A DNA stretch of 64,000 nt, from IMG/VR virus record IMGVR_UViG_3300024308_000304; one strand, 5' to 3'. Positions 9,157 through 37,997 of this stretch are shown in pieces. Position 1 is the stretch's first letter, and each line of letters opens with the position of its first letter. The stretch is from an uncultured virus (IMG/VR IMGVR_UViG_3300024308_000304). Its lineage: Duplodnaviria > Heunggongvirae > Uroviricota > Caudoviricetes. A program made the position numbers and the translations under genes. Below the pieces are notes generated by a model, which was not told where the DNA came from, ran no database searches, and saw nothing but the letters and a program-made list of their open reading frames with translations.

Positions 9157-9585
9157 ATGGAAATAGAAATTTATTTTAAAACAGAAGAATATAGAAAAAT
9201 ATTAAGTGATTTATTTGGGTTTGAAATCAGAAGAATTAATAATATACCAGATGAATATTTAGAAACGTATAAAGAATATTTATCCGAGAATATCGTCTTA
9301 GATGATGAAACAGAATGGCAAATGATAGAACGTTCACATTTTTTCTATGAAATAGATGATGAATATTTTGGTGTTTTTAAAAGAAAAAATGGTCAAGAAT
9401 ATATCGTAAAATATCGTGATGAATGTGAGTTGTTTTTTTCTGGAGATACATTATTCAACTGGTTATATACAGAAAAGCCATCTTTAATTAGAAGAAGACA
9501 AAATGAATGGGAAAAATTTAAAAAAATTTGTAAAGATAAATATAACATAGACACATCAAAATTATGGAAAGGTATTCAAGAATAA
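9157..9585 (+). CDS. Hypothetical protein
   Basis: 142 aa, GAGG RBS. Confidence 0.65.
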   Translation: MEIEIYFKTEEYRKILSDLFGFEIRRINNIPDEYLETYKEYLSENIVLDDETEWQMIERSHFFYEIDDEYFGVFKRKNGQEYIVKYRDECELFFSGDTLFNWLYTEKPSLIRRRQNEWEKFKKICKDKYNIDTSKLWKGIQE

Positions 9586-9627
9586 AAAAAGCACTCAGAA
9601 GAGTGCTTTAAATTATTGACATATCGT

Positions 9628-9996
9628 TTAATCCTCAAACATTCTGCGACCACGAGAAAGAGATTCGCCCATGTCTCTTTCAAAGTTGCAATCAAGTTCT
9701 CGTACATCATCGTCATCACGACGTTTTTTAACTTGTACATATTCGCCATCAGTCATTTTATTAGCAAGGCGAACGTTTTCAATATATTTAGCAATCCTTT
9801 TAACACCAGCTAAGTCTGCTTTAGTAAGTGTCACACTTGTATCATCGAATTCATCTTTTTCTTCCTTGAACAATTCGGAGTAATCTCGTTCAATCTTCTT
9901 TAATTGTTTTTGGGTTGGCCCACGTTCAGCCTTTACTACTTCAAATTCATTTGATTCTGAGGCTTCTTCAACGATGTCAATAATTTCATTACTCAT
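9628..9996 (-). CDS. Acidic hypothetical protein
   Basis: AGGAG RBS before MSNEIID start. Confidence 0.65.
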   Translation of the reverse strand: MSNEIIDIVEEASESNEFEVVKAERGPTQKQLKKIERDYSELFKEEKDEFDDTSVTLTKADLAGVKRIAKYIENVRLANKMTDGEYVQVKKRRDDDDVRELDCNFERDMGESLSRGRRMFED

Positions 9997-13886: not shown

Positions 13887-14504
13887 ATGAATGAGATAAT
13901 TAAAGAAGTAAATACGGATAATATTGAATACATAAATGAACAAAAACTCATAAATAAAGAATTAATAAAACAATCAACCAATCTATTGAATACAGAAGAT
14001 GATGATTCATCTAAAGGTATGCCATCAGTAATGGAAGTCATAGGTGTTTTTTTTATAATTTTCTTTATTATTACATTATCTATTTTCTTTTTTACACAAG
14101 CAAAAGAAACAGTAAATCTTAATAATGCAATTCAAGATAACACGAAATTATATACTGAATTAGTTCAAATAAAAGATGAAAATAAAGCAACAACGACACA
14201 AGAACTAATTAATTTAAATCAGTACACTCATACATTATCAAATAGTAATTTCAAAAGTGTTTGGGGTGGAGAAATTATACCAAGTATAGATAAAGATGGA
14301 ACAATTACTATTAATTATGATAATGTGCCAGTTGAATATTGTGAACAATTCATTTATAAACAAAAGTTACTTGGATGGAACTCAGTTAGTATTGCTAGCA
14401 ATAAAGGCCAAATGAAATCAATTGATTATAAAAATGAATCAGAAGTATCAAGAGAATGTTCTAAAAATAAGACTCCTATACAAATATCATTTAAAGGAGC
14501 ATAA
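13887..14504 (+). CDS. Type IVb (PilS-like) pilin-like protein, paralog 1
   Basis: Long hydrophilic leader, SKG|MPSVMEV, hydrophobic helix, SVWGG, YDNVPVEYC, second Cys near the C-terminus. Confidence 0.65.
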   Translation: MNEIIKEVNTDNIEYINEQKLINKELIKQSTNLLNTEDDDSSKGMPSVMEVIGVFFIIFFIITLSIFFFTQAKETVNLNNAIQDNTKLYTELVQIKDENKATTTQELINLNQYTHTLSNSNFKSVWGGEIIPSIDKDGTITINYDNVPVEYCEQFIYKQKLLGWNSVSIASNKGQMKSIDYKNESEVSRECSKNKTPIQISFKGA

Positions 14505-14507
14505 AAA

Positions 14508-15089
14508 ATGATTGATATTATTAAGGAAACCAGTTCAGAAAATATTGAGTATATAAATAAAGAACCAATAGCATCATCAAATAGCCTATTGAAGACTGAA
14601 AATGATAACTCATCCGAAGGAGTTTCATCATTAGTATTAATACCATTTACTTATTTAATATTTATAGTTATTATTATATTTTCAATGCTTTCATTTGACC
14701 AAATAAAACAAATAAAACAAACACAAAATACTGAGTATGCAATTAAAAAGAATGCTTCATTATATAATGAACTAATCGAAATAAAATTTAATAATGAAAG
14801 ATTAGATAATGCTCATATTTTATCAAATAGCAATTTAAAAAGTGTTTGGGGTGGAAAAATTGAGCCAATAATAGATAAATTGGGATTTATTAGTATCAGC
14901 TATAGTAAAGTACCAGTTGAATACTGCAAAGACTTCATTTATAAACAGAAGAATATAGGATGGAGTTCAATTAGTATTTCTGATAAAAAAGATAAAATAA
15001 ATGTAGTAAATTATAAAAATGAGTCAGAACTATCAAAAGAATGTTCTAAATATAATGATAATATCAATATTATATTTAAAGGAGAATAA
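14508..15089 (+). CDS. Type IVb pilin-like protein, paralog 2
   Basis: SVWGG, YSKVPVEYC, ECSK; single TM helix. Confidence 0.6.
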   Translation: MIDIIKETSSENIEYINKEPIASSNSLLKTENDNSSEGVSSLVLIPFTYLIFIVIIIFSMLSFDQIKQIKQTQNTEYAIKKNASLYNELIEIKFNNERLDNAHILSNSNLKSVWGGKIEPIIDKLGFISISYSKVPVEYCKDFIYKQKNIGWSSISISDKKDKINVVNYKNESELSKECSKYNDNINIIFKGE

Positions 15090-15092
15090 TGA

Positions 15093-15695
15093 ATGACTGA
15101 TAAAGTTAAAGAAGTTAATGAGAATAATATTGAATACATCAAAGATCAATCATATACCAATAATATAATTCTAAAGAATAAAAACAAAGTAAACTCTGAA
15201 TATTACAATCTGCAAATTAATGATAAATCAGAAATATCCGCTCCTGCTTTTTTGGTAATATTTTCCGTTGGAATTGTATGTGCTATTTTCCTTTATATTA
15301 TGTCTGAAAAATCAAATTTTATCCAAAATACTAATTATGAAATTAATAATACTTATAAACTATATAAAAAATTAGAAGCAATAAAAGTACATAACAAAAA
15401 TGAGACATCCTATAAAGAAATTACTATATTAAATAAAAATAATAAAAATATTTGGGGTGGAAAGATTGAATCCAATATTGACAAATCTGGAAATATTAAA
15501 ATTATTTATGAAAATGTTCAATCAAATTATTGTGAACCATTTATTAATAGACAAAAAGTATTAGATTGGACATCAATAAGTATTTCAGATAATAAGGATA
15601 AATCCAATATAGTAAATTATAAAGACAAGGTAGAACTATTAAAAGCATGTAGTGCGTCTAATGGTCCTGTATATATTACATTTAAAGGAAAATAA
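15093..15695 (+). CDS. Type IVb pilin-like protein, paralog 3
   Basis: NIWGG, YENVQSNYC, ACSA; single TM helix. Confidence 0.6.
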   Translation: MTDKVKEVNENNIEYIKDQSYTNNIILKNKNKVNSEYYNLQINDKSEISAPAFLVIFSVGIVCAIFLYIMSEKSNFIQNTNYEINNTYKLYKKLEAIKVHNKNETSYKEITILNKNNKNIWGGKIESNIDKSGNIKIIYENVQSNYCEPFINRQKVLDWTSISISDNKDKSNIVNYKDKVELLKACSASNGPVYITFKGK

Positions 15696-21162: not shown

Positions 21163-21912
21163 TTAGATAGTTGAAAGATCAGGTTCAACCCAGTTGACAC
21201 ATTTTAAGAATTTATTTGCTCTATAATCTTTACCACCAACGTTTTGATCTATTGAGGAATAAACAACTTGATATGGTGAGCCATCAGCTTGTTTCAATGG
21301 TGATGGACCATCATGTACCACTACACCTTTATCTCTATAGAATTTTAAGGTCTGATTGACTTCTGTCTCATTTGAACAAAGCTTACTCATATTACTCTCA
21401 GTAATCTTATGAATCAATACAGTTCTGTCTACTGAATATAAAGAACACAATGTTGCAAGATAAATATCTAATTCTTGAACAGCTTGCATAATAGCTTTGT
21501 AATTTCTTTTATCATTTATAGTTTTTATCAATTCATTTATGATAGCTTTAATGTCATCATAAACATTCTCATAGAAAACATCTTTGTCATAACCAATTAA
21601 AACGTCTTTCAATTCTGGGCTTGACTCTTTTTCAAGGTATTTATAACCAAGGAAATGTGGAACACCATAAAGGAAAACAATTAAGTCACCAATTGCATCA
21701 ACCATTCCTATACGACCTTCTTTTTGTTTTTCTGGACCTTCTTTAAGCAATTTAAAACCGTCATCTCTTAATTCATCCAATTCATCATAAAGATTTAAAC
21801 TCTGATTATAGAGCTTGTCATAATTTGTGATGACTCCATTTTCCATACAAGAACCAAAAAGATTGCCGAATGCTGTGTTTGTATCTGATATATTTTTATA
21901 CGCTGTATTCAT
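21163..21912 (-). CDS. MazG-like/PRA-PH nucleotide pyrophosphohydrolase
   Basis: DELDEL, VDAIGDLIVFLYG, SNMSK. Confidence 0.75.
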   Translation of the reverse strand: MNTAYKNISDTNTAFGNLFGSCMENGVITNYDKLYNQSLNLYDELDELRDDGFKLLKEGPEKQKEGRIGMVDAIGDLIVFLYGVPHFLGYKYLEKESSPELKDVLIGYDKDVFYENVYDDIKAIINELIKTINDKRNYKAIMQAVQELDIYLATLCSLYSVDRTVLIHKITESNMSKLCSNETEVNQTLKFYRDKGVVVHDGPSPLKQADGSPYQVVYSSIDQNVGGKDYRANKFLKCVNWVEPDLSTI

Positions 21913-22047
21913 TATAACTCCTTAAATTTTAACGATAAAAATAAACTACCATTAAAAAAGTAAAAGTCAAAAAAAAACTTAGAAATGTTGATTTTACAAG
22001 ATTAGGTGTTACTATTAAAAAACAATAAAAATGGAGATGTATATATT

Positions 22048-22695
22048 ATGAATAAATTAGGTGAATTTAACAGACTACTTTGCCAAGAGGAAATTGATGC
22101 TGAATTATCAAAATTAGGTAAACGTTTAGATGGAAAATTTAGAAAAACGTACATGAAGATGGCTTTAACAGCAAGTGATCTATCTTACTGTGCAAGATTA
22201 AAAGTTGGCTCTTTAATTGTGACTCAATTTAATGAAATGCTTACTGGATATAATGGAACACCATCAGGATTCCCAAACACCTGTGAACTTCCTAATCAAG
22301 ATGTTACAAACCCTATTACACTACATGGTGAGGCAAATGGTATGTCAAAAGCTGAACAAAGTACATTAAGCATCCGAAATGCATCTTTGTTTGTTACTCA
22401 TATACCTTGTATAGAATGTGCAAAAAGAATCATTCAAAGCGGAATGAAAAGAGTTTTCTATATACATGATTACCGATTAACAGATGGATTAGAATTGTTG
22501 ACAGATTTACGGTCAGAAATTCAGGTTATTAAATTAGATGCTGAGACTTTTGATATTGTAAATATACATGGCTATTATAAACCAATATTAACTGTGGAAG
22601 ATGAATTTGTCTATAATACACTTCTTCGTAAAATTGAAACGTTAGAAAATAAAATACAAAGTATGAAATCTTGTAATTGCAAAAATTGTCAATAA
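22048..22695 (+). CDS. dCMP deaminase
   Basis: GYNGTPSG, HGEAN, PCIECAK. Confidence 0.92.
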   Translation: MNKLGEFNRLLCQEEIDAELSKLGKRLDGKFRKTYMKMALTASDLSYCARLKVGSLIVTQFNEMLTGYNGTPSGFPNTCELPNQDVTNPITLHGEANGMSKAEQSTLSIRNASLFVTHIPCIECAKRIIQSGMKRVFYIHDYRLTDGLELLTDLRSEIQVIKLDAETFDIVNIHGYYKPILTVEDEFVYNTLLRKIETLENKIQSMKSCNCKNCQ

Positions 22696-22737
22696 AAAAA
22701 GCCTCTGATGAGGCTTTAATTTTAATAAGAATATCTG

Positions 22738-23316
22738 TTATTCTTTAACAACTCTATGTTCTTTCATAACACGCTTAGGCATTTTTGGTTTCTTAATAGA
22801 CTTATTAACTGTTTTAAATTGTAATGTCATTGGAGTTTTTACAGATTCCATTACATTAACTTCGAATGAATAACCTAATTTAGTCAAATATTCAATCAAT
22901 GAATCCACTGAGAATTTTTCAATTTTCTTGTTTACTAAATCACTAACTCGTGGTTGTTTGATAGCCAGAAGCTCTTGTACTTGACGTTGTTTGAATTTAT
23001 TGCTTTCAATAATTTCTCCAACAATAGTAATCAAACGAGTTTTAATACTGTCAATATATTCTTTTTGATTAACAGGATACCCTTCAATAACATAACCAAT
23101 TTTATTTAAATAATCTAACAGGGAGTCTATAGAGAATTTTTCTACCTTACCATTTACCAGATCACTTACCCTTGGCTGTTTAATGTCAAGAATAACTTCA
23201 ACTTCTCTTTGTTTCAATTTCTTTTGGTTAATTAGTCTAGCAATAGTTTTTGACAGCTTATTTTTAATCTCATCAAAATTTACTTCAACACTGCTAGAAG
23301 TAATTTGTTCTTTCAT
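22738..23316 (-). CDS. Tandem XRE-family HTH regulator
   Basis: Two copies of IKQPRVSDLVNxKxEKFSxDSL. Confidence 0.85.
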   Translation of the reverse strand: MKEQITSSSVEVNFDEIKNKLSKTIARLINQKKLKQREVEVILDIKQPRVSDLVNGKVEKFSIDSLLDYLNKIGYVIEGYPVNQKEYIDSIKTRLITIVGEIIESNKFKQRQVQELLAIKQPRVSDLVNKKIEKFSVDSLIEYLTKLGYSFEVNVMESVKTPMTLQFKTVNKSIKKPKMPKRVMKEHRVVKE

Positions 23317-23517
23317 TTTAATCTCCTTGTTAATATTTCACGTATTATATATCTGATAGTATAATCTGTCAACAACAATATTTTAAAACGAAAATATAAA
23401 TGTAATAAAAATCATATATTTAGGACTAATGTCTCATATTGAGAAAGATATAATGTCAAGAATCAAAATACAACGATGTGACCTATATTTCATTTTGATA
23501 AAAATATTAAAATCTGC

Positions 23518-23546
23518 TTGCATTTAAAAAAACATAGAGCTATAAT
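23518..23546 (+). promoter_or_regulatory. sigma70 promoter for a short noncoding transcript
   Basis: TTGCAT-17-TATAAT. Confidence 0.75.
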
Positions 23547-23550
23547 GACA

Positions 23551-23634
23551 GTCCCCCAAATAATAATAATTATAAAATCCACTGCACTAGTCCTGTAAGT
23601 TATCCCCCCCAAATCGACTTACAGGATTTTTTTT
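23551..23634 (+). ncRNA. Candidate ~84-nt sRNA
   Basis: Between promoter and terminator TCCTGTAAGT...ACTTACAGGA-T8; no ATG; two CCCCCAAAT motifs and an (AAT)4 tract. Confidence 0.65.
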
Positions 23635-23694
23635 GTCTGTAAGAAAAGTATGTTTGAAAGATAATAACAATAAAAAAGAGCCTCTCGGCTCCTT

Positions 23695-26061
23695 TTATAC
23701 TTTAGGTTTATTTTTCTTTGGTAAAACAGATAACTCCTGTACCAATTCTTTATTGTTAACCATAAATTCATCTCTTAAATCAATAATGCTACGCTTCCTT
23801 TGCTCTGATGGCAATACTTTGATGTAATTCAAAAATTCAACTGCTAATTTTTTATCAACATCATTAATTAAGAAGTGATTATTAACTAAATTAACAGTAT
23901 CAAATTTATCACCTTTAAGTTCAGAACGTTCCATCTTCTCAACAAAGCCACGCATAGTTTTCCAGAAGCTGTAATATGGAAGTTTAATCTTAATCATATT
24001 CAATGCATCATCTTCACACACAAAACCTTCAAATTGTCTCTTAGTAGTGAAAGCACTTTCATTAGAAACTGAATTAAAGAATTTTTCAAAATTTTCTGGA
24101 GATTCAAAATGAGCAAATCTTTTTTTCACTTTAAGATCTTTAAATCCTTCTGCAAACTTTGTTAATTCTTCATAATTCAATTGTGAGAACTTGAATTCTC
24201 TCTTAACAATACCAATCAATACCAAGTGTGGTGTATCATATTTCACAATATGAGGATCATTTACTGGATCATTCACTTCAAACAGATAATTAACATTATG
24301 CTTGTTAGCAAAAATCTTCATATGTTCTAATTCAGATTTAGTAAACTGAGCTTTGGCAATATCTTTCAAATAAGTAGAAAATTCTCCACCAATATCTGAT
24401 TTAGAAGCAAAGATGAGGCTATCATTCTTTGAATCATAACCAACAATACCTAAGAAACCATTCTCTTTTTCATAAAGATTGATTTTTCCTTTAAAATTAC
24501 TTTTTACAACTTCCATTTTCGCAGAAGGAATTCCTCGTTCATTAACATTAAAGAACTTTTCAAAACCACGAGCTACAATTTCACCTGACTCAGTATTAAT
24601 AAACAAACCACGAGCATGAATTAAAAGCTCATTTTCAAAACGTTTATCAAAAAAAGCTTCTTTCTTGAAATTGAAAGCTGAAATATGTGGTAAGTCTTCA
24701 AATGTTTTTTCACGAATAAGTTCATTTGCTCTCAAATCTTTAACAATCTCAAGATTTTCTTTACTGTAGTTTACTTTATTTTCTAAAAAATCACTCAAAT
24801 TGTTAACATCTGCTTTTGTTATAAACATATTTTTTTCTTTTTCAATCTTCTCAACAGCAGTTTTATTAAATACTTTATTAGTAATATAAATACCATTAAA
24901 ACCGTTTTTATCCAATCTAAGAATTGGCAAGCTACCACCATATTCAACATCAGCCTCAAGAGCAAAGCTTTTTGGGTGAGTCTCAAAACCATGTTTATAT
25001 TGGTTTCTATGGCCATGAACTTGATACCAGTTATTATCTTGGTTTAGTTCATTAAATGTTTTATCAACATCATAACTGTAAGAACCATAACCTCTCATAT
25101 ATTCAATAGTAGTCAAAAGTCTTGGATGTTTAGGTACATTAGCAAGACCAGCATGAGTTGCCATAATATTTTTATCTCTATAATGAATAAAGCTGTAAAG
25201 ATGAAGCTTATTATAAAGCTCACGCATATCTTCTTTATTAATACCAGCTTTTAACAACTGTGGTAATGTATTATAAGTAAATTCACTTGGTGGAGTCAAA
25301 ATATCATTACTGTAGTTATACAAGTGTAATTCATGGTTCCCAGCTAAAAAAACAAAGTTCTCATAATCAATATATTTCTGAACGAAACGGAAACATTTAT
25401 CATTCTGAATACCACGATCAAGATAGTCGCCAACTAAAATATAGACTTCATCCTTGCTATAAGTGTTTTGTTCAAAGAACTGTTTCAATGGATAGAATGA
25501 ACCTTGAAGATCACCAATCCAGTTAATTTTCTTATAATGACTAAGATCCAAAAGTAAAGATTCTGGAGTTGCTTTTACATAAGCAAGAGCTTGTTCTGGT
25601 GTAATAATTTTAGATGGATCATCAAATTTTGAATTAACAAACAAATCATAGTTACGATCAAGGGCTTCTTTAGGAAGTCTTTTATACGTTTCACGTTGTT
25701 CATTTCTTTTATAATAGAATTCTTTATCCATCAATGGGAAACGAACAATTCTGTAGTCATAATGATATTGTTTCATAATGTCTAAATAAGTATCAATTGA
25801 TTTTTGATCTTGGTTTAAGTTATCAATGAAAATAGCTCCGCCATTACTCAACCTTACTTTAAATGCTTCAATAAATTTAGCAAAAACAAAATCCTCTCTA
25901 TTATTAGAAAGAACAAGATTACCAAACATATCAGTAGCAGCACCAGCGTAGACATGACGAATCGCATCCAAAGACAATGTATGTGGGTCTAATTCGTTCT
26001 CATGAATAAATGTTGATTTACCTGTTCCTGGCATTGCTGAAAGAAAATACACAATTCTCAT
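23695..26061 (-). CDS. Trifunctional RNA repair enzyme: polynucleotide kinase, metallophosphoesterase and Rnl1-like RNA ligase
   Basis: AMPGTGKS; GDLQG, GDYLDRG, GNHE, HGH; EKFFN, KENGFLG (motif I), EGFV, IKIK. Confidence 0.88.
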   Translation of the reverse strand: MRIVYFLSAMPGTGKSTFIHENELDPHTLSLDAIRHVYAGAATDMFGNLVLSNNREDFVFAKFIEAFKVRLSNGGAIFIDNLNQDQKSIDTYLDIMKQYHYDYRIVRFPLMDKEFYYKRNEQRETYKRLPKEALDRNYDLFVNSKFDDPSKIITPEQALAYVKATPESLLLDLSHYKKINWIGDLQGSFYPLKQFFEQNTYSKDEVYILVGDYLDRGIQNDKCFRFVQKYIDYENFVFLAGNHELHLYNYSNDILTPPSEFTYNTLPQLLKAGINKEDMRELYNKLHLYSFIHYRDKNIMATHAGLANVPKHPRLLTTIEYMRGYGSYSYDVDKTFNELNQDNNWYQVHGHRNQYKHGFETHPKSFALEADVEYGGSLPILRLDKNGFNGIYITNKVFNKTAVEKIEKEKNMFITKADVNNLSDFLENKVNYSKENLEIVKDLRANELIREKTFEDLPHISAFNFKKEAFFDKRFENELLIHARGLFINTESGEIVARGFEKFFNVNERGIPSAKMEVVKSNFKGKINLYEKENGFLGIVGYDSKNDSLIFASKSDIGGEFSTYLKDIAKAQFTKSELEHMKIFANKHNVNYLFEVNDPVNDPHIVKYDTPHLVLIGIVKREFKFSQLNYEELTKFAEGFKDLKVKKRFAHFESPENFEKFFNSVSNESAFTTKRQFEGFVCEDDALNMIKIKLPYYSFWKTMRGFVEKMERSELKGDKFDTVNLVNNHFLINDVDKKLAVEFLNYIKVLPSEQRKRSIIDLRDEFMVNNKELVQELSVLPKKNKPKV

Positions 26062-26182
26062 CTATTTTTATCCTGTAGTGTGTTTATATGCTTATTGTAC
26101 CACATAAGTTCCAGATTTTGAAATATTTTTTTATTGACTTGCAAGGTATTTTTTGATAAAATTTCAAAAAAAAGGAGAGTAT

Positions 26183-26899
26183 ATGTCAAGTCAACCTTCA
26201 TTGCAGTCATTCATTGAGAACTTACATAATATGGAGCATGCATTTGATGTTAGTTGCAAAGCTTTAAATTTTGAAGATTCAAAAGCATTTGGTCAATTTA
26301 ATATGTTAATTGCAGAAGGCATGGAATATTCAGCAGCCAATGTGGTTGTTCAAAGATTATTTATTTATCATATTGAAAGAAGTTTGCTTGATCATGTAGA
26401 GAAAACTAAAAGAACTGCAAATGCTTCAACTTACTATAATCACATTAATGATTATTTAGATAACCGCTCTGGCCCTTATCGTGATTTGGTATTGTTTGAA
26501 ATTGAATGCCTTATTAAAGACTCCAAGTTTTCTGTAGAATCAATTGAAAAAGAAGTTATTATTGAAACAACTTCAATTGGTCTTAATATCCTAAAAACAA
26601 TTATGGTAAATGATTGGGGCATCAACTTCGATTTAAGAAAAATAAAACAATCAGATGTTGAAGATTATTTAATGAATTATATTGGCCTTGATCGTAAAAT
26701 GGCCCTAAAATTCTGTTTAGCTACAATGTGCCGTGGCTTCGAACAAGGAGATGCAGATGTTTCAGCATTTATCCCTGAAAAATATATGGCTTGTTTTGAT
26801 GATTTCTATAATTATGTATTAGATGAACATCTTGCAAATGACCAACGTTTAGTATTAGCATTCGCAATGGTTGTATTTATGTATATGTTCAGAATTTAA
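26183..26899 (+). CDS. Hypothetical protein
   Basis: AGGAG RBS, 238 aa. Confidence 0.7.
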   Translation: MSSQPSLQSFIENLHNMEHAFDVSCKALNFEDSKAFGQFNMLIAEGMEYSAANVVVQRLFIYHIERSLLDHVEKTKRTANASTYYNHINDYLDNRSGPYRDLVLFEIECLIKDSKFSVESIEKEVIIETTSIGLNILKTIMVNDWGINFDLRKIKQSDVEDYLMNYIGLDRKMALKFCLATMCRGFEQGDADVSAFIPEKYMACFDDFYNYVLDEHLANDQRLVLAFAMVVFMYMFRI

Positions 26900-27532
26900 T
26901 TATGGTTTAAGTGTTTTAGGTTTAGGACAAAGAGCTTTAAATTCAGATGCCACTTTATTATAGAGTGGCTTATATTTTTCATGCAAACTATCCCAATTAT
27001 TTTGTGTAATAAGATAGCTTTTAGAAATATCATCATATAAATCATTAACTGATGTTGGATTAATTTTAGAATCCACTACAATTTGTTTTGCAAAATCTAA
27101 TATTCTAAATGAATGCCATAGAGATTTAAGTGATGTTGAAACGTTGAAATCTTCATCTACTATTAATTTTTTCTTAGCTTTAACATAGCTGTTAGAACTT
27201 TTTTGAGAACAGCTTTCTCTTAATTTTTCTTTGTTTAAGACAAATGAATCAAATTCTTTTTGTATCTCAGGAGAAACAAAGGCTGTTTCATGCTTGATAT
27301 ATAAACATTCTAAAACAGAAATTTCATGTTCTTTCAGTCTTTGAATGAATTCATCTTTACTGTAGTTACTAATTTCAAACTGGATACCATTTTCTTCAAA
27401 TGTTTCTTGGAAATAAGGTTTATCTGATACAACTATAAAATCAAAATCATCTGGTTTTTTATTGCCATATACTGCTGAACCATATGGGAAAATAGCTAAT
27501 GCATTGTATTTATTTTTTAAAGTGTTTATCAT
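26900..27532 (-). CDS. Pol-beta superfamily nucleotidyltransferase
   Basis: PYGSAVYG...DDFDFIVV (GS-x-DxD); GAGG RBS. Confidence 0.8.
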   Translation of the reverse strand: MINTLKNKYNALAIFPYGSAVYGNKKPDDFDFIVVSDKPYFQETFEENGIQFEISNYSKDEFIQRLKEHEISVLECLYIKHETAFVSPEIQKEFDSFVLNKEKLRESCSQKSSNSYVKAKKKLIVDEDFNVSTSLKSLWHSFRILDFAKQIVVDSKINPTSVNDLYDDISKSYLITQNNWDSLHEKYKPLYNKVASEFKALCPKPKTLKP

Positions 27533-27575
27533 GAAGTGCCTCGTTGTTATTATTATAATACCATAAAACGGAAAT

Positions 27576-27848
27576 AAAAAAAGAGAGCCTTTCGACTCTC
27601 TTATCATTCCTTTGTACAACTTCCTTTATTGTTTTACAACTTCCGTTTACATAAATTAGAATATTATCCATCAAGCATCTAATTCTTCTTCCTTCCAGCG
27701 TAACAGTCCATTATTATTTGTAATCCTTCACAACATCATCCTGATAATTTGTTCCCGATTCCTTTATTGTTTTGCAGTCCATTACATCTTGCCAGCTTGT
27801 GTTAGAAATCATTTCTTACACTATTATTGTTCTTGTCCCTGCTGACAA
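27576..27848 (-). ncRNA. CsrB/RsmZ-like sRNA with additional A-rich (CrcZ-like) motifs
   Basis: 13 GGA motifs on the minus strand, promoter TTGACA-16-TAATAT at 27880..27853, terminator AAGAGAGTC-GAAA-GGCTCTCTT-T run. Confidence 0.8.
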
Positions 27849-28130
27849 TTACATATTAACAGTATTTTTTTTGATGTCAATAAAAATTATAGCATTTCGC
27901 ATGATTTTTTATTGGCGTCAATGCTGTAACGCCATATTTTTTATAATTTTGTTATCATTTTTTATATATTTTTTTAAAGTAAATATATGTTCTATAAGGT
28001 TTTTTTATAAAAAATAAAAATAATAACATTGAACCAAAAAAAATATTGTTTTTTGCACTGTTTTATCTCTTAAATCATGTTTTTTGCAAGATGGCCATTT
28101 ACCATCAAACAGAAATATTGCTAAAAAGCT

Positions 28131-28148
28131 TGTAAGAGGAAGCTTACA
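28131..28148. promoter_or_regulatory. GacA/UvrY-type upstream activating sequence
   Basis: TGTAAG-AGGAAG-CTTACA matches TGTAAG-N6-CTTACA. Confidence 0.7.
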
Positions 28149-28167: not shown

Positions 28168-28184
28168 ATCAAAATTCGTGCCAA
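28168..28184 (-). promoter_or_regulatory. Possible sigma54 -24/-12 promoter facing the sRNA
   Basis: TTGGCACGAATTTTGAT vs consensus TGGCACG-N4-TTGC (one mismatch at -12). Confidence 0.45.
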
Positions 28185-28371: not shown

Positions 28372-28656
28372 ATGAAATTTTTAGAAAAACTTAATCAATT
28401 ATCAGAAGGGTTATTAGACCTTAAAGAAAAATTTGAAAAAATTGACAAAGATTCTTTAATGAAAGATGATCGTGAAGAACTTGAAAAAATAGAAGATTTG
28501 CTTAGATTCTACATCAATACAACCCTTGAATTAGCTATTGATCAAAACCAAGAAATTATTTTGGAAAATAAAGATATGGTAAAAAGAATAGTGAAAGATA
28601 TAGAAAACTTCATAAAAGAAGTGAAAGAAAATATAAACGAAGATTTTGTAGGATAA
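28372..28656 (+). CDS. Coiled-coil hypothetical protein
   Basis: 94 aa, GGAG RBS. Confidence 0.65.
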   Translation: MKFLEKLNQLSEGLLDLKEKFEKIDKDSLMKDDREELEKIEDLLRFYINTTLELAIDQNQEIILENKDMVKRIVKDIENFIKEVKENINEDFVG

Positions 28657-36053: not shown

Positions 36054-36139
36054 GCGGATGTGGCGAAATTTGGTAAACGCGACCGTCTCAAAAACGGTTC
36101 TTTATAAGATTGTGAGTTCGAGTCTCACCATCCGCACCA
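36054..36139 (+). tRNA. tRNA-Leu(CAA)
   Basis: Cloverleaf, loop CT-CAA-AA, long variable arm, ACCA end. Confidence 0.92.
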
Positions 36140-36224
36140 AATAAAAAATGGGTTGCTCTGGTCACTGACTGGAACCTTTAAAACATACTAACTATGAATA
36201 CTAGTATTATTAAAGGCAAACCCC

Positions 36225-36309
36225 TGACAAAAGTGATGAAATGGTAGCCATGACACCGAGCGAAGGTGTGCCCAATAAGGCGTGAGGGTTCAAGTCCCTT
36301 CTTTTGTCA
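36225..36309 (+). ncRNA. tRNA-Leu-like RNA with aberrant anticodon loop (GAGCGAA), 9-bp acceptor helix, no CCA
   Basis: Intact D arm, variable arm and T arm (GGGTTCAAGTCCC); lacks U33. Confidence 0.7.
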
Positions 36310-36320
36310 AGTTTAAGAAT

Positions 36321-36404
36321 GCGTTAGTGGTGGAATGGTATACACGTTGGTCTAAGAAGCCAATGCCGCAAGGATTGAGAGTTCAAGTCTCTCCTAACGC
36401 ACCA
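36321..36404 (+). tRNA. tRNA-Leu(AAG)
   Basis: Loop CT-AAG-AA, long variable arm, ACCA. Confidence 0.92.
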
Positions 36405-36415
36405 AATTAAGATAT

Positions 36416-36500
36416 GCCCTGATGTTGGAATAGGTAGACATAACGGTCTAAGAAGCCGTGGCCGAAAGGCATGCGAGTTCGAGTCTCGCTTAGGGCACCA
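36416..36500 (+). tRNA. tRNA-Leu(AAG)
   Basis: Loop CT-AAG-AA, ACCA. Confidence 0.92.
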
Positions 36501-36509
36501 AATATAAAA

Positions 36510-36594
36510 GCCTCTCTGGCGGAATTGGTAGACGCGGCGGATTCAAAATCCGCTTCCGAAAGGAGTGTGGGTTCGAGTCCCACGGGAGGCACCA
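36510..36594 (+). tRNA. tRNA-Leu(CAA)
   Basis: Loop TT-CAA-AA, ACCA. Confidence 0.93.
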
Positions 36595-36610
36595 AATTGT
36601 TACAAATTAT

Positions 36611-36696
36611 GCCCAAATGGTGAAATTGGTAGTACACAGGAGACTTAAAATCTCCCGGCGAAAGTCGTGTCGGTTCGAGTCCGACTTTGGGCACCA
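36611..36696 (+). tRNA. tRNA-Leu(TAA)
   Basis: Loop CT-TAA-AA, ACCA. Confidence 0.93.
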
Positions 36697-36835
36697 GATT
36701 ATTACAAACAGCCCGTAGTTACTAGGGTGTTGATAGGAGCTAAAGAAATGCTGCTTGATAAGTGTTTAAATGTACACCTCTTGCGGGAGAAAGGTCAAGG
36801 TGCGGGCGTTGATTATCAACTTGTAATAAAAATAT

Positions 36836-36919
36836 GCGGAAGTGACGAAATGGTAGACGTGCTGGTCTTAGAAGCCAGTGTCGAAAGACGTGTGGGTTCG
36901 AGTCCCACCTTCCGCACCA
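36836..36919 (+). tRNA. tRNA-Leu(TAG)
   Basis: Loop CT-TAG-AA, ACCA. Confidence 0.93.
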
Positions 36920-36921
36920 GA

Positions 36922-37073
36922 TTGCTTAAATGATGGAATGGTAGACATAGGGTGATAGCCCTGTCATTTACAGGTTCGAATCCTGTTATTAGCAGAAATG
37001 TTAATATGGCGGAACGGTAGACGCGATGGACATTGAGTCCATGACTTGTAGGTTCGAGTCCTACTTTAAGCAA
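36922..37073 (+). ncRNA. Strand-swapped double tRNA-like RNA
   Basis: Two D/T-arm sets; outer 9-bp helix TTGCTTAAA/TTTAAGCAA; inner 8-bp helix TATTAGCA-GAAA-TGTTAATA. Confidence 0.75.
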
Positions 37074-37081
37074 CATATTAT

Positions 37082-37165
37082 GCGTTAGTGGTGGAATGGT
37101 ATACACGCTGGTCTAAGAAGCCAGTGCCGAAAGGATTGTGAGTTCGACTCTCACCTAACGCACCA
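37082..37165 (+). tRNA. tRNA-Leu(AAG)
   Basis: Loop CT-AAG-AA, ACCA; near-duplicate of 36321..36404. Confidence 0.92.
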
Positions 37166-37186
37166 GATTAAAAAAAATGTGTTTAT

Positions 37187-37271
37187 CCCCGGATGGTGGA
37201 ATTGGTAGACACAGGAGACTTAAAATCTCCCGGCGAAAGCCGTGTCGGTTCGAGTCCGACTCCGGGGACCA
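37187..37271 (+). tRNA. tRNA-Leu(TAA)
   Basis: Loop CT-TAA-AA, ACCA. Confidence 0.93.
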
Positions 37272-37281
37272 GTTTTAAAAA

Positions 37282-37373
37282 TTCAATATCGAAGGTTCGA
37301 ATCCTTCTCTCGTGTAATAACGGGGTGGTGAAGTGGTAGACACGTTTGCTGAAATGCATTCTAAAATATTGGA
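37282..37373 (+). ncRNA. Circularly permuted tRNA-like RNA (T arm, closed acceptor helix, D arm), Y-RNA-like topology
   Basis: GAAGG-TTCGAAT-CCTTC, then TCTCGT/ACGGGG, then GTG-AAGTGGTAGA-CAC, enclosed by TTCAATAT/ATATTGGA. Confidence 0.65.
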
Positions 37374-37385
37374 TTACTTTTTTAA

Positions 37386-37471
37386 GCCCGAGTGGTGAAA
37401 TGGTAGACGCGGGGGACTTAAAATCCCTTTCCTTAATCGGAGTGCCGGTTCGAGTCCGGCTTCGGGCACCA
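37386..37471 (+). tRNA. tRNA-Leu(TAA)
   Basis: Loop CT-TAA-AA, ACCA. Confidence 0.92.
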
Positions 37472-37541
37472 AATGTATACTAAAATTTGTTGACTTATTT
37501 TAATATTTGATTTAAAATATCGGCAAATTGAGGTAAATAAA

Positions 37542-37883
37542 ATGAATAAAAAATCTAAAGGACAAGTAGTTTTTGTCAATCTGTATGATAACCGTTATTG
37601 GAATGTATTTCTTGATGGTGAATTATTTCATGAAATACATAAGGAAGACTTCACAACATATGTCTTCAGAGAATCAAACAGAAAAGCATTGGCTAAAGCA
37701 TCATCACTTGATGAAAAAGATCTTCGTTATTCTTATATAGATCTTGAAAATGGCATTAATGAAGATGAATACAATTCAAATGATTATCAAGAATTTCAAG
37801 TAGTTTTAAGTGCTTGCAATTTCTATAATATTGATTATGTATTTAAAGATGTAAACTACGAATACATTGAAACTAAATACTAA
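37542..37883 (+). CDS. Hypothetical protein inside the tRNA array
   Basis: 113 aa, GAGGT RBS, own TTGACT promoter. Confidence 0.7.
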   Translation: MNKKSKGQVVFVNLYDNRYWNVFLDGELFHEIHKEDFTTYVFRESNRKALAKASSLDEKDLRYSYIDLENGINEDEYNSNDYQEFQVVLSACNFYNIDYVFKDVNYEYIETKY

Positions 37884-37912
37884 TAATTGGTAGAATGTAG
37901 TAATAAATTAAT

Positions 37913-37997
37913 GCGGAAGTGATGGAATGGTAGACATAGCAGTCTCAGAAGCTGCTGCTGTAATGGCGTGAGAGTTCAAGTCTCTTCTTCCGTACCA
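37913..37997 (+). tRNA. tRNA-Leu(CAG)
   Basis: Loop CT-CAG-AA, ACCA. Confidence 0.92.

Follow-up and report, generated by a model that had tools for sequence, protein, structure and literature searches.

The window analyzed here, a stretch of 64,000 nucleotides (64 kb) with a G+C content of 29%, carries open reading frames with Shine-Dalgarno sequences and TATAAT boxes, including genes for ClpA, GAPDH, thioredoxin reductase (TrxB), Fpg, CoaD/CoaE, asparagine synthase, NadR and MGMT, and is overall unusually poor in recognizable families. On its minus strand, we observed a predicted noncoding RNA gene placed behind an upstream spacer of 490 nt and directly upstream of a nucleotidyltransferase gene (P0001), which is followed by a gene for a kinase-phosphatase-ligase fusion (P0003). 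The features of the locus are presented in Table 1.

Table 1. Coordinates of the predicted RNA gene, its signals and structural elements, and the two downstream genes in the window.
Feature	Position	Strand	Basis
GacA/UvrY-type box, palindrome TGTAAG-CTTCCT-CTTACA	28131..28148		Exact consensus match; center about 293 nt upstream of the predicted RNA start
Sigma-70-type promoter TTGACA-16 nt-TAATAT, TG extension before the -10	27853..27880	-	Consensus scan, 10/12 matches
Predicted noncoding RNA, about 270 nt, 13 GGA	27574..27846	-	Start placed from the -10, 3' end from the U tract
Stem P1, 5' arm (UUGUCAGC)	27841..27848	-	RNAalifold consensus
(AAN)n tract AAGAACAAUAAUA in the P1 loop	27822..27834	-	A-A positions invariant, third positions vary
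Stem P1, 3' arm (GCUGGCAA)	27789..27796	-	RNAalifold consensus
Hairpin UUAUCA-GGA-UGAUG, carrying CAGGAUG	27734..27747	-	RNAalifold; consensus UAUCA-GGA-UGAUA
Hairpin P4, GAUGGA in the loop	27653..27686	-	RNAalifold, 11-bp stem
Intrinsic terminator, preceded by CAAAGGAAUGAUAAG	27576..27602	-	9-bp stem, 4 GC pairs, U tract (U7)
Putative separate extended -10 (TGGTATTATAAT) for the downstream gene	27552..27563	-	Sequence reading
Pol-beta-superfamily nucleotidyltransferase P0001	26900..27532	-	Weak Pfam NTP_transf_2 match, E 0.0017
Kinase-phosphatase-Rnl1 RNA ligase fusion P0003	23695..26061	-	Pfam AAA_33, Metallophos, RNA_lig_T4_1

Conservation of the RNA in related loci

An alignment of P0001 homologues led to 80 metagenome loci and 16 IMG/VR loci. 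In the five closest (L001-L005; L081 is the same locus as L003), the P0001 enzyme is 58-70% identical and the gene order matches that of the window for more than 10 kb to either side, on contigs of 0.008-1.86 Mb (1.86 Mb for L003, 0.6 Mb for L004). The nucleotidyltransferase, Pnkp and adjacent syntenic proteins of these relatives mostly share 50-77% identity with those of the window, one fast-evolving gene being at 27-36%. An RNA with 10-21 GGA was present at the same place in all five relatives, and UCC occurs 0-1 times in the six RNAs. With an nhmmer profile of the six RNAs, we obtained one match per relative (E 2e-37 to 2e-71) and no other in the 1.16 Mb searched. The 181-kb record G001, a relative, contains one copy of the RNA, and a pattern scan of viral contigs for further copies gave no new record. 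No such RNA was detected upstream of the more distant P0001 homologues (L006-L012 and L082-L084, 39-52% identity), which lie in other contexts. In the L001 homologue (9535-9962), the central module (GUAAUGGAC block through P4 hairpin) is duplicated in tandem, which brings the number of GGA to 21; such a gain would be expected for a titrating RNA. Scans with single proteins, two of genome contigs and a first one of viral contigs, found no relatives, and a lenient blastn run as a conservation control was not discriminating, having aligned straight through AT-rich DNA.

CsrB, CsrC, RsmY, PrrB_RsmZ and rsmX are Rfam families. The initial annotation had set the RNA beside CsrB, RsmY/Z and CrcZ; a covariance-model search of positions 27400-28050 (cmscan, E of at most 10) gave no match to these models and only five weak unrelated matches, the best being rli56 (E 0.35), and an Rfam search of two of the homologous loci returned no matches.

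A strand-biased cluster of GGA motifs

Both direct reading and a script count returned the 13 GGA motifs on the minus strand and none on the plus strand of positions 27576-27848 that the initial annotation had described, in the contexts that it listed (AGGGA, ATGGA three times, AAGGA five times, CAGGATG, ACGGA, CGGGA and CTGGA). This segment is the strongest GGA cluster of the 64-kb window. Sliding segments of 273 nt held a mean of 2.0 GGA on the plus strand and 1.7 on the minus strand, and only 0.06% of them reached at least 13 on either strand, every one overlapping 27576-27848. Mononucleotide shuffles of the RNA contained 5.95 ± 1.97 GGA, with at least 13 in 0.08% of 10,000 shuffles.

The motifs also share a sequence context. 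Over the six RNAs, an A stands at position -2 of the GGA (A-N-GGA) in 70 of 89 sites compared to a window background of 36%, and a G follows it (GGAG) in only 2 of 89 compared to 17%, these sites being drawn from related, not independent, sequences, for which p-values overstate independence. For the window RNA alone, the numbers are 10/13 and 0/13. The rarity of GGAG suggests that true Shine-Dalgarno cores are avoided by the sites of the RNA. The most conserved element of the six RNAs is CAGGA(U/A/C)G, present in every homologue, with nine instances in these RNAs and three elsewhere in the window on both strands. This element is described as the repeat first found in CsrB, and CsrA binding sites as GGA in loops or single strands, in PMC7652899.

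A predicted independent transcription unit

The GGA cluster had been placed between a promoter and a terminator, and our scans placed a sigma-70 promoter close to the consensus and an intrinsic terminator (27602-27581) on either side of it. The -35, the spacing and the -10 of the promoter are preserved in the window and all five relatives. The terminator stem and the GGA before it are kept in five of the six sequences, the stem of L005 being different. Consensus scans and conservation both point to an independent gene that has a promoter and a rho-independent terminator of its own. In all six loci, TGGTATAAT, TGGTATACT, TGGTATTAT or TGTTAAAAT stands at the place of the -10 of the downstream gene; this conserved extended -10 between the terminator and the next gene suggests that the RNA probably forms a transcription unit by itself. 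Small ORFs occur in the RNA (32 aa in the window). A coding function was rejected since frames are not preserved between conserved blocks, which lie in different frames in L003 and L001.

Predicted structure of the RNA

The RNAalifold consensus comprised four elements: the 5' stem P1, a 5-bp hairpin, an 11-bp hairpin (P4) and the terminator. Compensatory changes affected only three pairs of the consensus fold. In P1, the pairs 7:66 and 10:63 showed changes on both sides. The 5-bp stem of the CAGGAUG hairpin is kept in all six RNAs, two of its pairs with a one-side change, and the changes in P4 are one-sided only (G-U/A-U), four pairs being broken in one or two sequences. The overall folding z was -1.39.

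GGA was predicted to be more unpaired than other bases in all six RNAs (0.54-0.70 vs 0.37-0.45), clearly above flank-shuffled controls in one of them; this difference fits C-poor RNA, the C content of the six being 8-11%. The number of GGA in short hairpin loops (39/89) was not above that in shuffles (33.6 ± 4.8). A covarying stem picked by eye, P3, was dropped, its sum score of 79 not being significant compared to 69.9 ± 5.2 in shuffles (p=0.054).

A GacA/UvrY-type box in the upstream spacer

The original prediction protocol for Csr sRNAs is reportedly that of Kulkarni et al. from 2006. The GacA box consensus is given as TGTAAGN6CTTACA, and a GacA box, a high A(N)GGA density and a rho-independent terminator are described as the recognition marks of Csr sRNAs in Shewanella and Marinomonas (PMC3171408, PMC8523701). 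For E. coli and Salmonella, PMC4682653 describes an inverted repeat of 18 nt to which UvrY binds, far upstream of csrB with its center at -183. The exact consensus has a single match in the 64 kb and none in 100 shuffles; with up to two mismatches, four were found compared to 4.1 expected, which is the level of chance. The 18-mer box is identical at 18/18 positions in L001 and L003, where its distance from the -35 is the same (-268/-270). In the alignment of these two loci with the window, it is part of 20 consecutive invariant columns surrounded by diverged intergenic DNA. The spacer is short in L002, L004 and L005, where no box was detected within three mismatches in the 600 nt upstream, so that the exact box is present in only three of the six loci. 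Instead of the RNA, the target of the box could be the divergent gene at 28372.

Other elements were observed in the spacer. A sigma-54-like sequence, TGGCAC-GAATT-TTGA (28169-28183, minus strand), lies about 330 nt upstream of the RNA and just upstream of the box, facing the RNA. The key C of its -12 is replaced, it is partly kept in L003 (TGGCACGTATTTTGG), and near-matches are no commoner in the window than chance (3 found vs 1.5 expected). Between the box and the promoter, two islands (28040-28100 and 27881-27945, minus strand) are conserved in the window, L001 and L003. One consists of a repeated motif, TTGCAAAAAAC; the other is the promoter-proximal CAATAAAAAAyCATGCrAAATrCTATAA, just upstream of the -35. 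These islands may be sites for accessory factors; L004 has ATCATGCAAAATGCAA at a similar place.

A-rich tracts

The A-rich strings AAGAACAATAA, AAAACAATAAA (twice), AAATAATAA and AAGAAGAA reported earlier are present on the minus strand, as is the direct repeat of AAAACAATAAAGGAA (27773-27759 and 27635-27621). The RNA contains five (A-R-N)n tracts with n of at least 3, compared to a window background of 1.66 ± 1.36, and 3.4% of segments reach five. This number is not significant with regard to the composition of the RNA itself, 9.3% of own-composition shuffles reaching five; likewise, 15% of such shuffles reach the two tracts observed with n of at least 4. Only the 5' tract is conserved in all homologues, being kept as (AAN)4-6 in the six RNAs. 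By analogy with motifs bound by the distal face of Hfq, this tract might, as a guess, be a fair candidate for an Hfq site. RsmY is known to bind Hfq according to PMC7298702, which cites Sorger-Domenigg 2007 (its reference 49), and an Hfq site here would therefore be no new principle.

For CrcZ, PMC4063720 describes six A-rich stretches that bind the Hfq distal face, in 407 nt, and an RpoN/CbrB promoter. The part of the initial annotation that made the RNA a sponge for Hfq and Crc did not hold: in this genome with 71% A+T, the A-rich tracts do not go beyond the RNA's own composition and a single one is conserved, the promoter is of the sigma-70 type and not RpoN/CbrB, and no CrcZ match was found. 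No hfq gene was detected in the window or in the 181-kb G001, together about 0.25 Mb.

Genomic context

The locus had also been taken as encoded by a phage or another element. We found no match to the phage structural families of PHROGs among 49 otherwise unexplained proteins of the window, none in G001 to three terminase/capsid Pfam families, and none for the locus in 50,697 phage records or 72,556 plasmid records. Housekeeping genes surround the locus, which is syntenic in contigs of 0.6 and 1.86 Mb. Judged by the marks of a mobile element, namely structural or mobility genes and a patchy distribution, the locus does not qualify as part of one. These results speak against an element- or phage-encoded RNA, and the gene is best read as chromosomal and conserved in an uncultured AT-rich bacterial lineage.

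A cluster of phage-like ancestry lies at 21163-27532, with genes for a MazG-like pyrophosphatase, a dCMP deaminase and an HTH protein in addition to P0003 and P0001. Its order is conserved in the five relatives and it sits inside the chromosomal region. P0003 is a full-length match to phrog_8238 (E 2.7e-145). In the P0001 family, 13 of 28 members match NTP_transf_2 and 0 of 28 match RlaP (PF10127); most Atlas neighbors of P0001 are viral, and RlaP occurs in some clusters. IMG/VR labels G001, the stretch around the RNA copy of a relative, as a provirus, probably because of this gene cluster.

Regarding the lineage, metagenomic relatives of ClpA reach 61-98% identity, followed by a gap to at most 46% for named organisms. 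The best named matches are Thermodesulfovibrio, Polyangiaceae, Bdellovibrionales and Zoogloea, the phyla including Nitrospirota, Myxococcota and Bdellovibrionota. No 16S rRNA was found in G001, and an Atlas search with the upstream 149-aa protein gave scores below 0.9. No csrA (PF02599) was detected among 62 window proteins, including 26 small ORFs, or in G001, about 0.25 Mb together. A giant-virus origin, prompted by the AT-richness, the tRNA-Leu array and Fpg/MGMT/AsnB, was rejected since the mimivirus early-promoter motif AAAATTGA was found 25 times compared to 24.1 expected and genes carry Shine-Dalgarno and TATAAT signals.

The window further contains a tandem array of 12 tRNA genes (36054-37997, plus strand) with encoded CCA where read: ten class II tRNA-Leu with anticodons CAA, AAG (three), TAA (three), TAG and CAG, one 84-nt Leu-like gene with anticodon GCG (called Arg), and one tRNA-Gln; Rfam indicated a weak 13th tRNA at 36924-36994. 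In bacteria, Leu-AAG is unusual. With a mean column identity of 72%, the copies have diverged, indicating that the array is no recent duplication. At 13887-15695 (plus strand), three paralogous genes, each of about 200 aa, lie side by side, two of them matching the PilS N-terminal (type IV pilin-like) family.

A predicted CsrA sponge and its alternatives

We consider it likely that the RNA is an sRNA of the Csr/Rsm type that acts as a CsrA sponge and is controlled in a GacA/UvrY-like manner. This reading is based on the density and strand bias of GGA, the A-N-GGA context, the CAGGA(U/A/C)G core and the GacA box, together with the RNA's own promoter and terminator, its conservation in five syntenic relatives, its noncoding nature and the more unpaired state predicted for GGA. 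From the sequence, we infer transcription, activation by a GacA/UvrY orthologue and CsrA binding. In the mechanism that we propose, a strong sigma-70 promoter, probably activated from the far-upstream GacA/UvrY-type box, would drive an RNA of about 270 nt that would end at the intrinsic terminator. This C-poor RNA would display 13 A-N-GGA sites, predicted to be mostly single-stranded and including the invariant CAGGAUG hairpin, and dimers of a CsrA/RsmA homologue would be captured by these sites. The sponge would thereby pull CsrA/RsmA off the Shine-Dalgarno regions of target mRNAs and CsrA control would be relieved. As in RsmY, the conserved (AAN)4-6 tract might, at a guess, additionally bind Hfq. 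Several observations count against a Csr/Rsm sponge: csrA was not found in the window or G001 and no Csr-family Rfam match was obtained; the box is present in three of six loci, lies at about -293 and possibly belongs to the divergent gene; GGA in hairpin loops are at the level of chance, the folding z is -1.39 and only three pairs show compensatory changes; and the named ClpA matches are not Gammaproteobacteria, the group of the known Gac/Csr sRNAs.

Other explanations were weighed against these data. The one initially proposed, a phage- or element-encoded RNA titrating both CsrA/RsmA and Hfq/Crc and lifting catabolite repression of the host, agrees with the reality of the GGA sites, the existence of (A-R-N)n tracts of which the 5' one is conserved in 6/6 RNAs, the IMG/VR provirus call for the 181-kb stretch around a relative's copy, and the two downstream genes from families common in phages. 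It is nevertheless very improbable: the 49 window proteins include no structural gene and G001 lacks the three terminase/capsid families, the locus is flanked by housekeeping genes and syntenic on contigs of 0.6-1.86 Mb, the phage and plasmid records hold no match, the A-rich tracts show no enrichment relative to the composition of the RNA, the promoter is sigma-70 rather than RpoN, hfq was found neither in the window nor in G001, and Crc is known as a Pseudomonas-group protein. Of the dual sponge, the CsrA/RsmA half is thus retained, with its A-N-GGA sites, CAGGA(U/A/C)G core and conserved GacA/UvrY box, and the Hfq/Crc half is not. A GGA-rich RNA whose partner is not CsrA but, for instance, a different RNA-binding protein or the 16S rRNA end with the anti-Shine-Dalgarno sequence would be consistent with the failure to find csrA in the window or G001, with the complementarity of AAAGGA to the 16S 3' tail and with a lineage that is not demonstrably gammaproteobacterial. 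We give it a low probability, since GGAG, the best anti-Shine-Dalgarno partner, is avoided (2/89), and a Gac/Csr circuit is specifically indicated by both the CAGGAUG core and the GacA box.

The neighboring genes suggest two further readings. Y-like RNAs in Rsr/RtcB repair operons would offer a parallel for an RNA that serves the adjacent RNA-repair genes (RlaP-like nucleotidyltransferase, kinase-phosphatase-ligase), for example in a regulatory, decoy or scaffold role. In all six loci, the nucleotidyltransferase gene directly follows the RNA, with the ligase fusion next, and RlaP-type enzymes are described as acting on RNA 3' ends alongside ligases (PMC12776372; PMC7824862). This adjacency weighs little because the six loci are syntenic over more than 10 kb, and the distant enzyme homologues (39-52% identity) lack the RNA upstream; with a -10 element belonging to the enzyme gene itself, and the GacA box and the A-N-GGA grammar left unexplained, a role in RNA repair appears improbable. 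Were the stretch to act in cis, as a leader (attenuator) in the mRNA for the nucleotidyltransferase instead of a free-standing RNA, this would account for the shared strand and for a terminator placed about 40 nt ahead of that gene's ribosome-binding site, with no intervening gene. Such a leader is very unlikely given the strong terminator (9-bp stem, U7), for which the consensus fold offered no alternative antiterminator, and the conserved extended -10 between terminator and gene; moreover, at least 13 protein-type sites and the module duplication of L001 are not features of known leaders, and riboswitch and leader families gave no match.

The preferred reading, a Csr/Rsm-type sponge, would bring no new mechanism, and the phage and dual-sponge claims, from which the apparent exceptionality came, fail. 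If confirmed, the RNA would represent a new sequence family of Csr/Rsm sponges that Rfam models do not detect, and a canonical circuit of GacA/UvrY box and sponge in an uncultured, very AT-rich lineage without named close relatives. It would aid the annotation of post-transcriptional control in metagenome-assembled genomes and bear on the reach of sRNA antagonists of CsrA beyond Gammaproteobacteria. In PMC7652899, CsrB-family sRNAs are described as widespread in Gammaproteobacteria and fliW as anti-correlated with BarA-UvrY. It is possible, though unlikely, that the host lies outside Gammaproteobacteria and that a complete CsrA sponge driven by a GacA box exists in a phylum whose only known antagonists are proteins (FliW) and also engages Hfq through (AAN)4-6; in that case, one RNA would link two global regulators, CsrA and Hfq.

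Comparison with known sponge RNAs

With regard to the Pseudomonas RNAs CrcZ and CrcY, the RNA shares A-rich tracts of the A-R-N type, of which CrcZ has six in 407 nt (PMC4063720). It differs in that only a single tract is kept throughout the homologues and the tracts show no enrichment relative to composition, in its sigma-70 promoter instead of RpoN/CbrB, in the dominance of the GGA grammar and in the lack of an Rfam match. The marks of CrcZ/CrcY, namely A-rich tracts beyond composition and an RpoN-dependent promoter under CbrB, were not found.

The TGTAAGN6CTTACA element of RsmX/Y/Z (Pseudomonas) and of CsrB1/CsrB2 (Shewanella) is matched exactly here, and further features in common with these RNAs are A(N)GGA motifs plus a terminator, as described in PMC3171408 and PMC8523701. 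The conserved (AAN)n tract would parallel the binding of Hfq by RsmY (PMC7298702). Unlike the Rsm RNAs, the RNA has no Rfam match, and the exact box is present in only three of the six homologous loci. RsmY/Z have about half its length of about 270 nt.

CsrB has a length of 369 nt; the RNA is shorter, about 270 nt, and very AT-rich, and its box is centered at about -293 compared to -183. In contrast to CsrB/CsrC, it could not be related to these families by sequence or covariance-model similarity. What it has in common with CsrB/CsrC of E. coli and Salmonella is the high number of GGA on one strand (22 in CsrB; PMC7652899, PMC4682653), the CAGGA(U/A/C)G repeat, its own promoter and intrinsic terminator, and an 18-nt inverted repeat for UvrY far upstream. 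Sites in loops or single-stranded stretches, as in CsrB/CsrC, are suggested here by the predicted unpaired state of GGA but not by the number of GGA in short hairpin loops, which is at the level of chance. Of the marks of the Csr/Rsm class, many A(N)GGA on the transcribed strand, a GacA/UvrY box upstream (in three of the six loci) and a predicted promoter and terminator were observed. From these features, the RNA is best read as no sequence homologue of the CsrB and RsmZ families and as one that would work like them.
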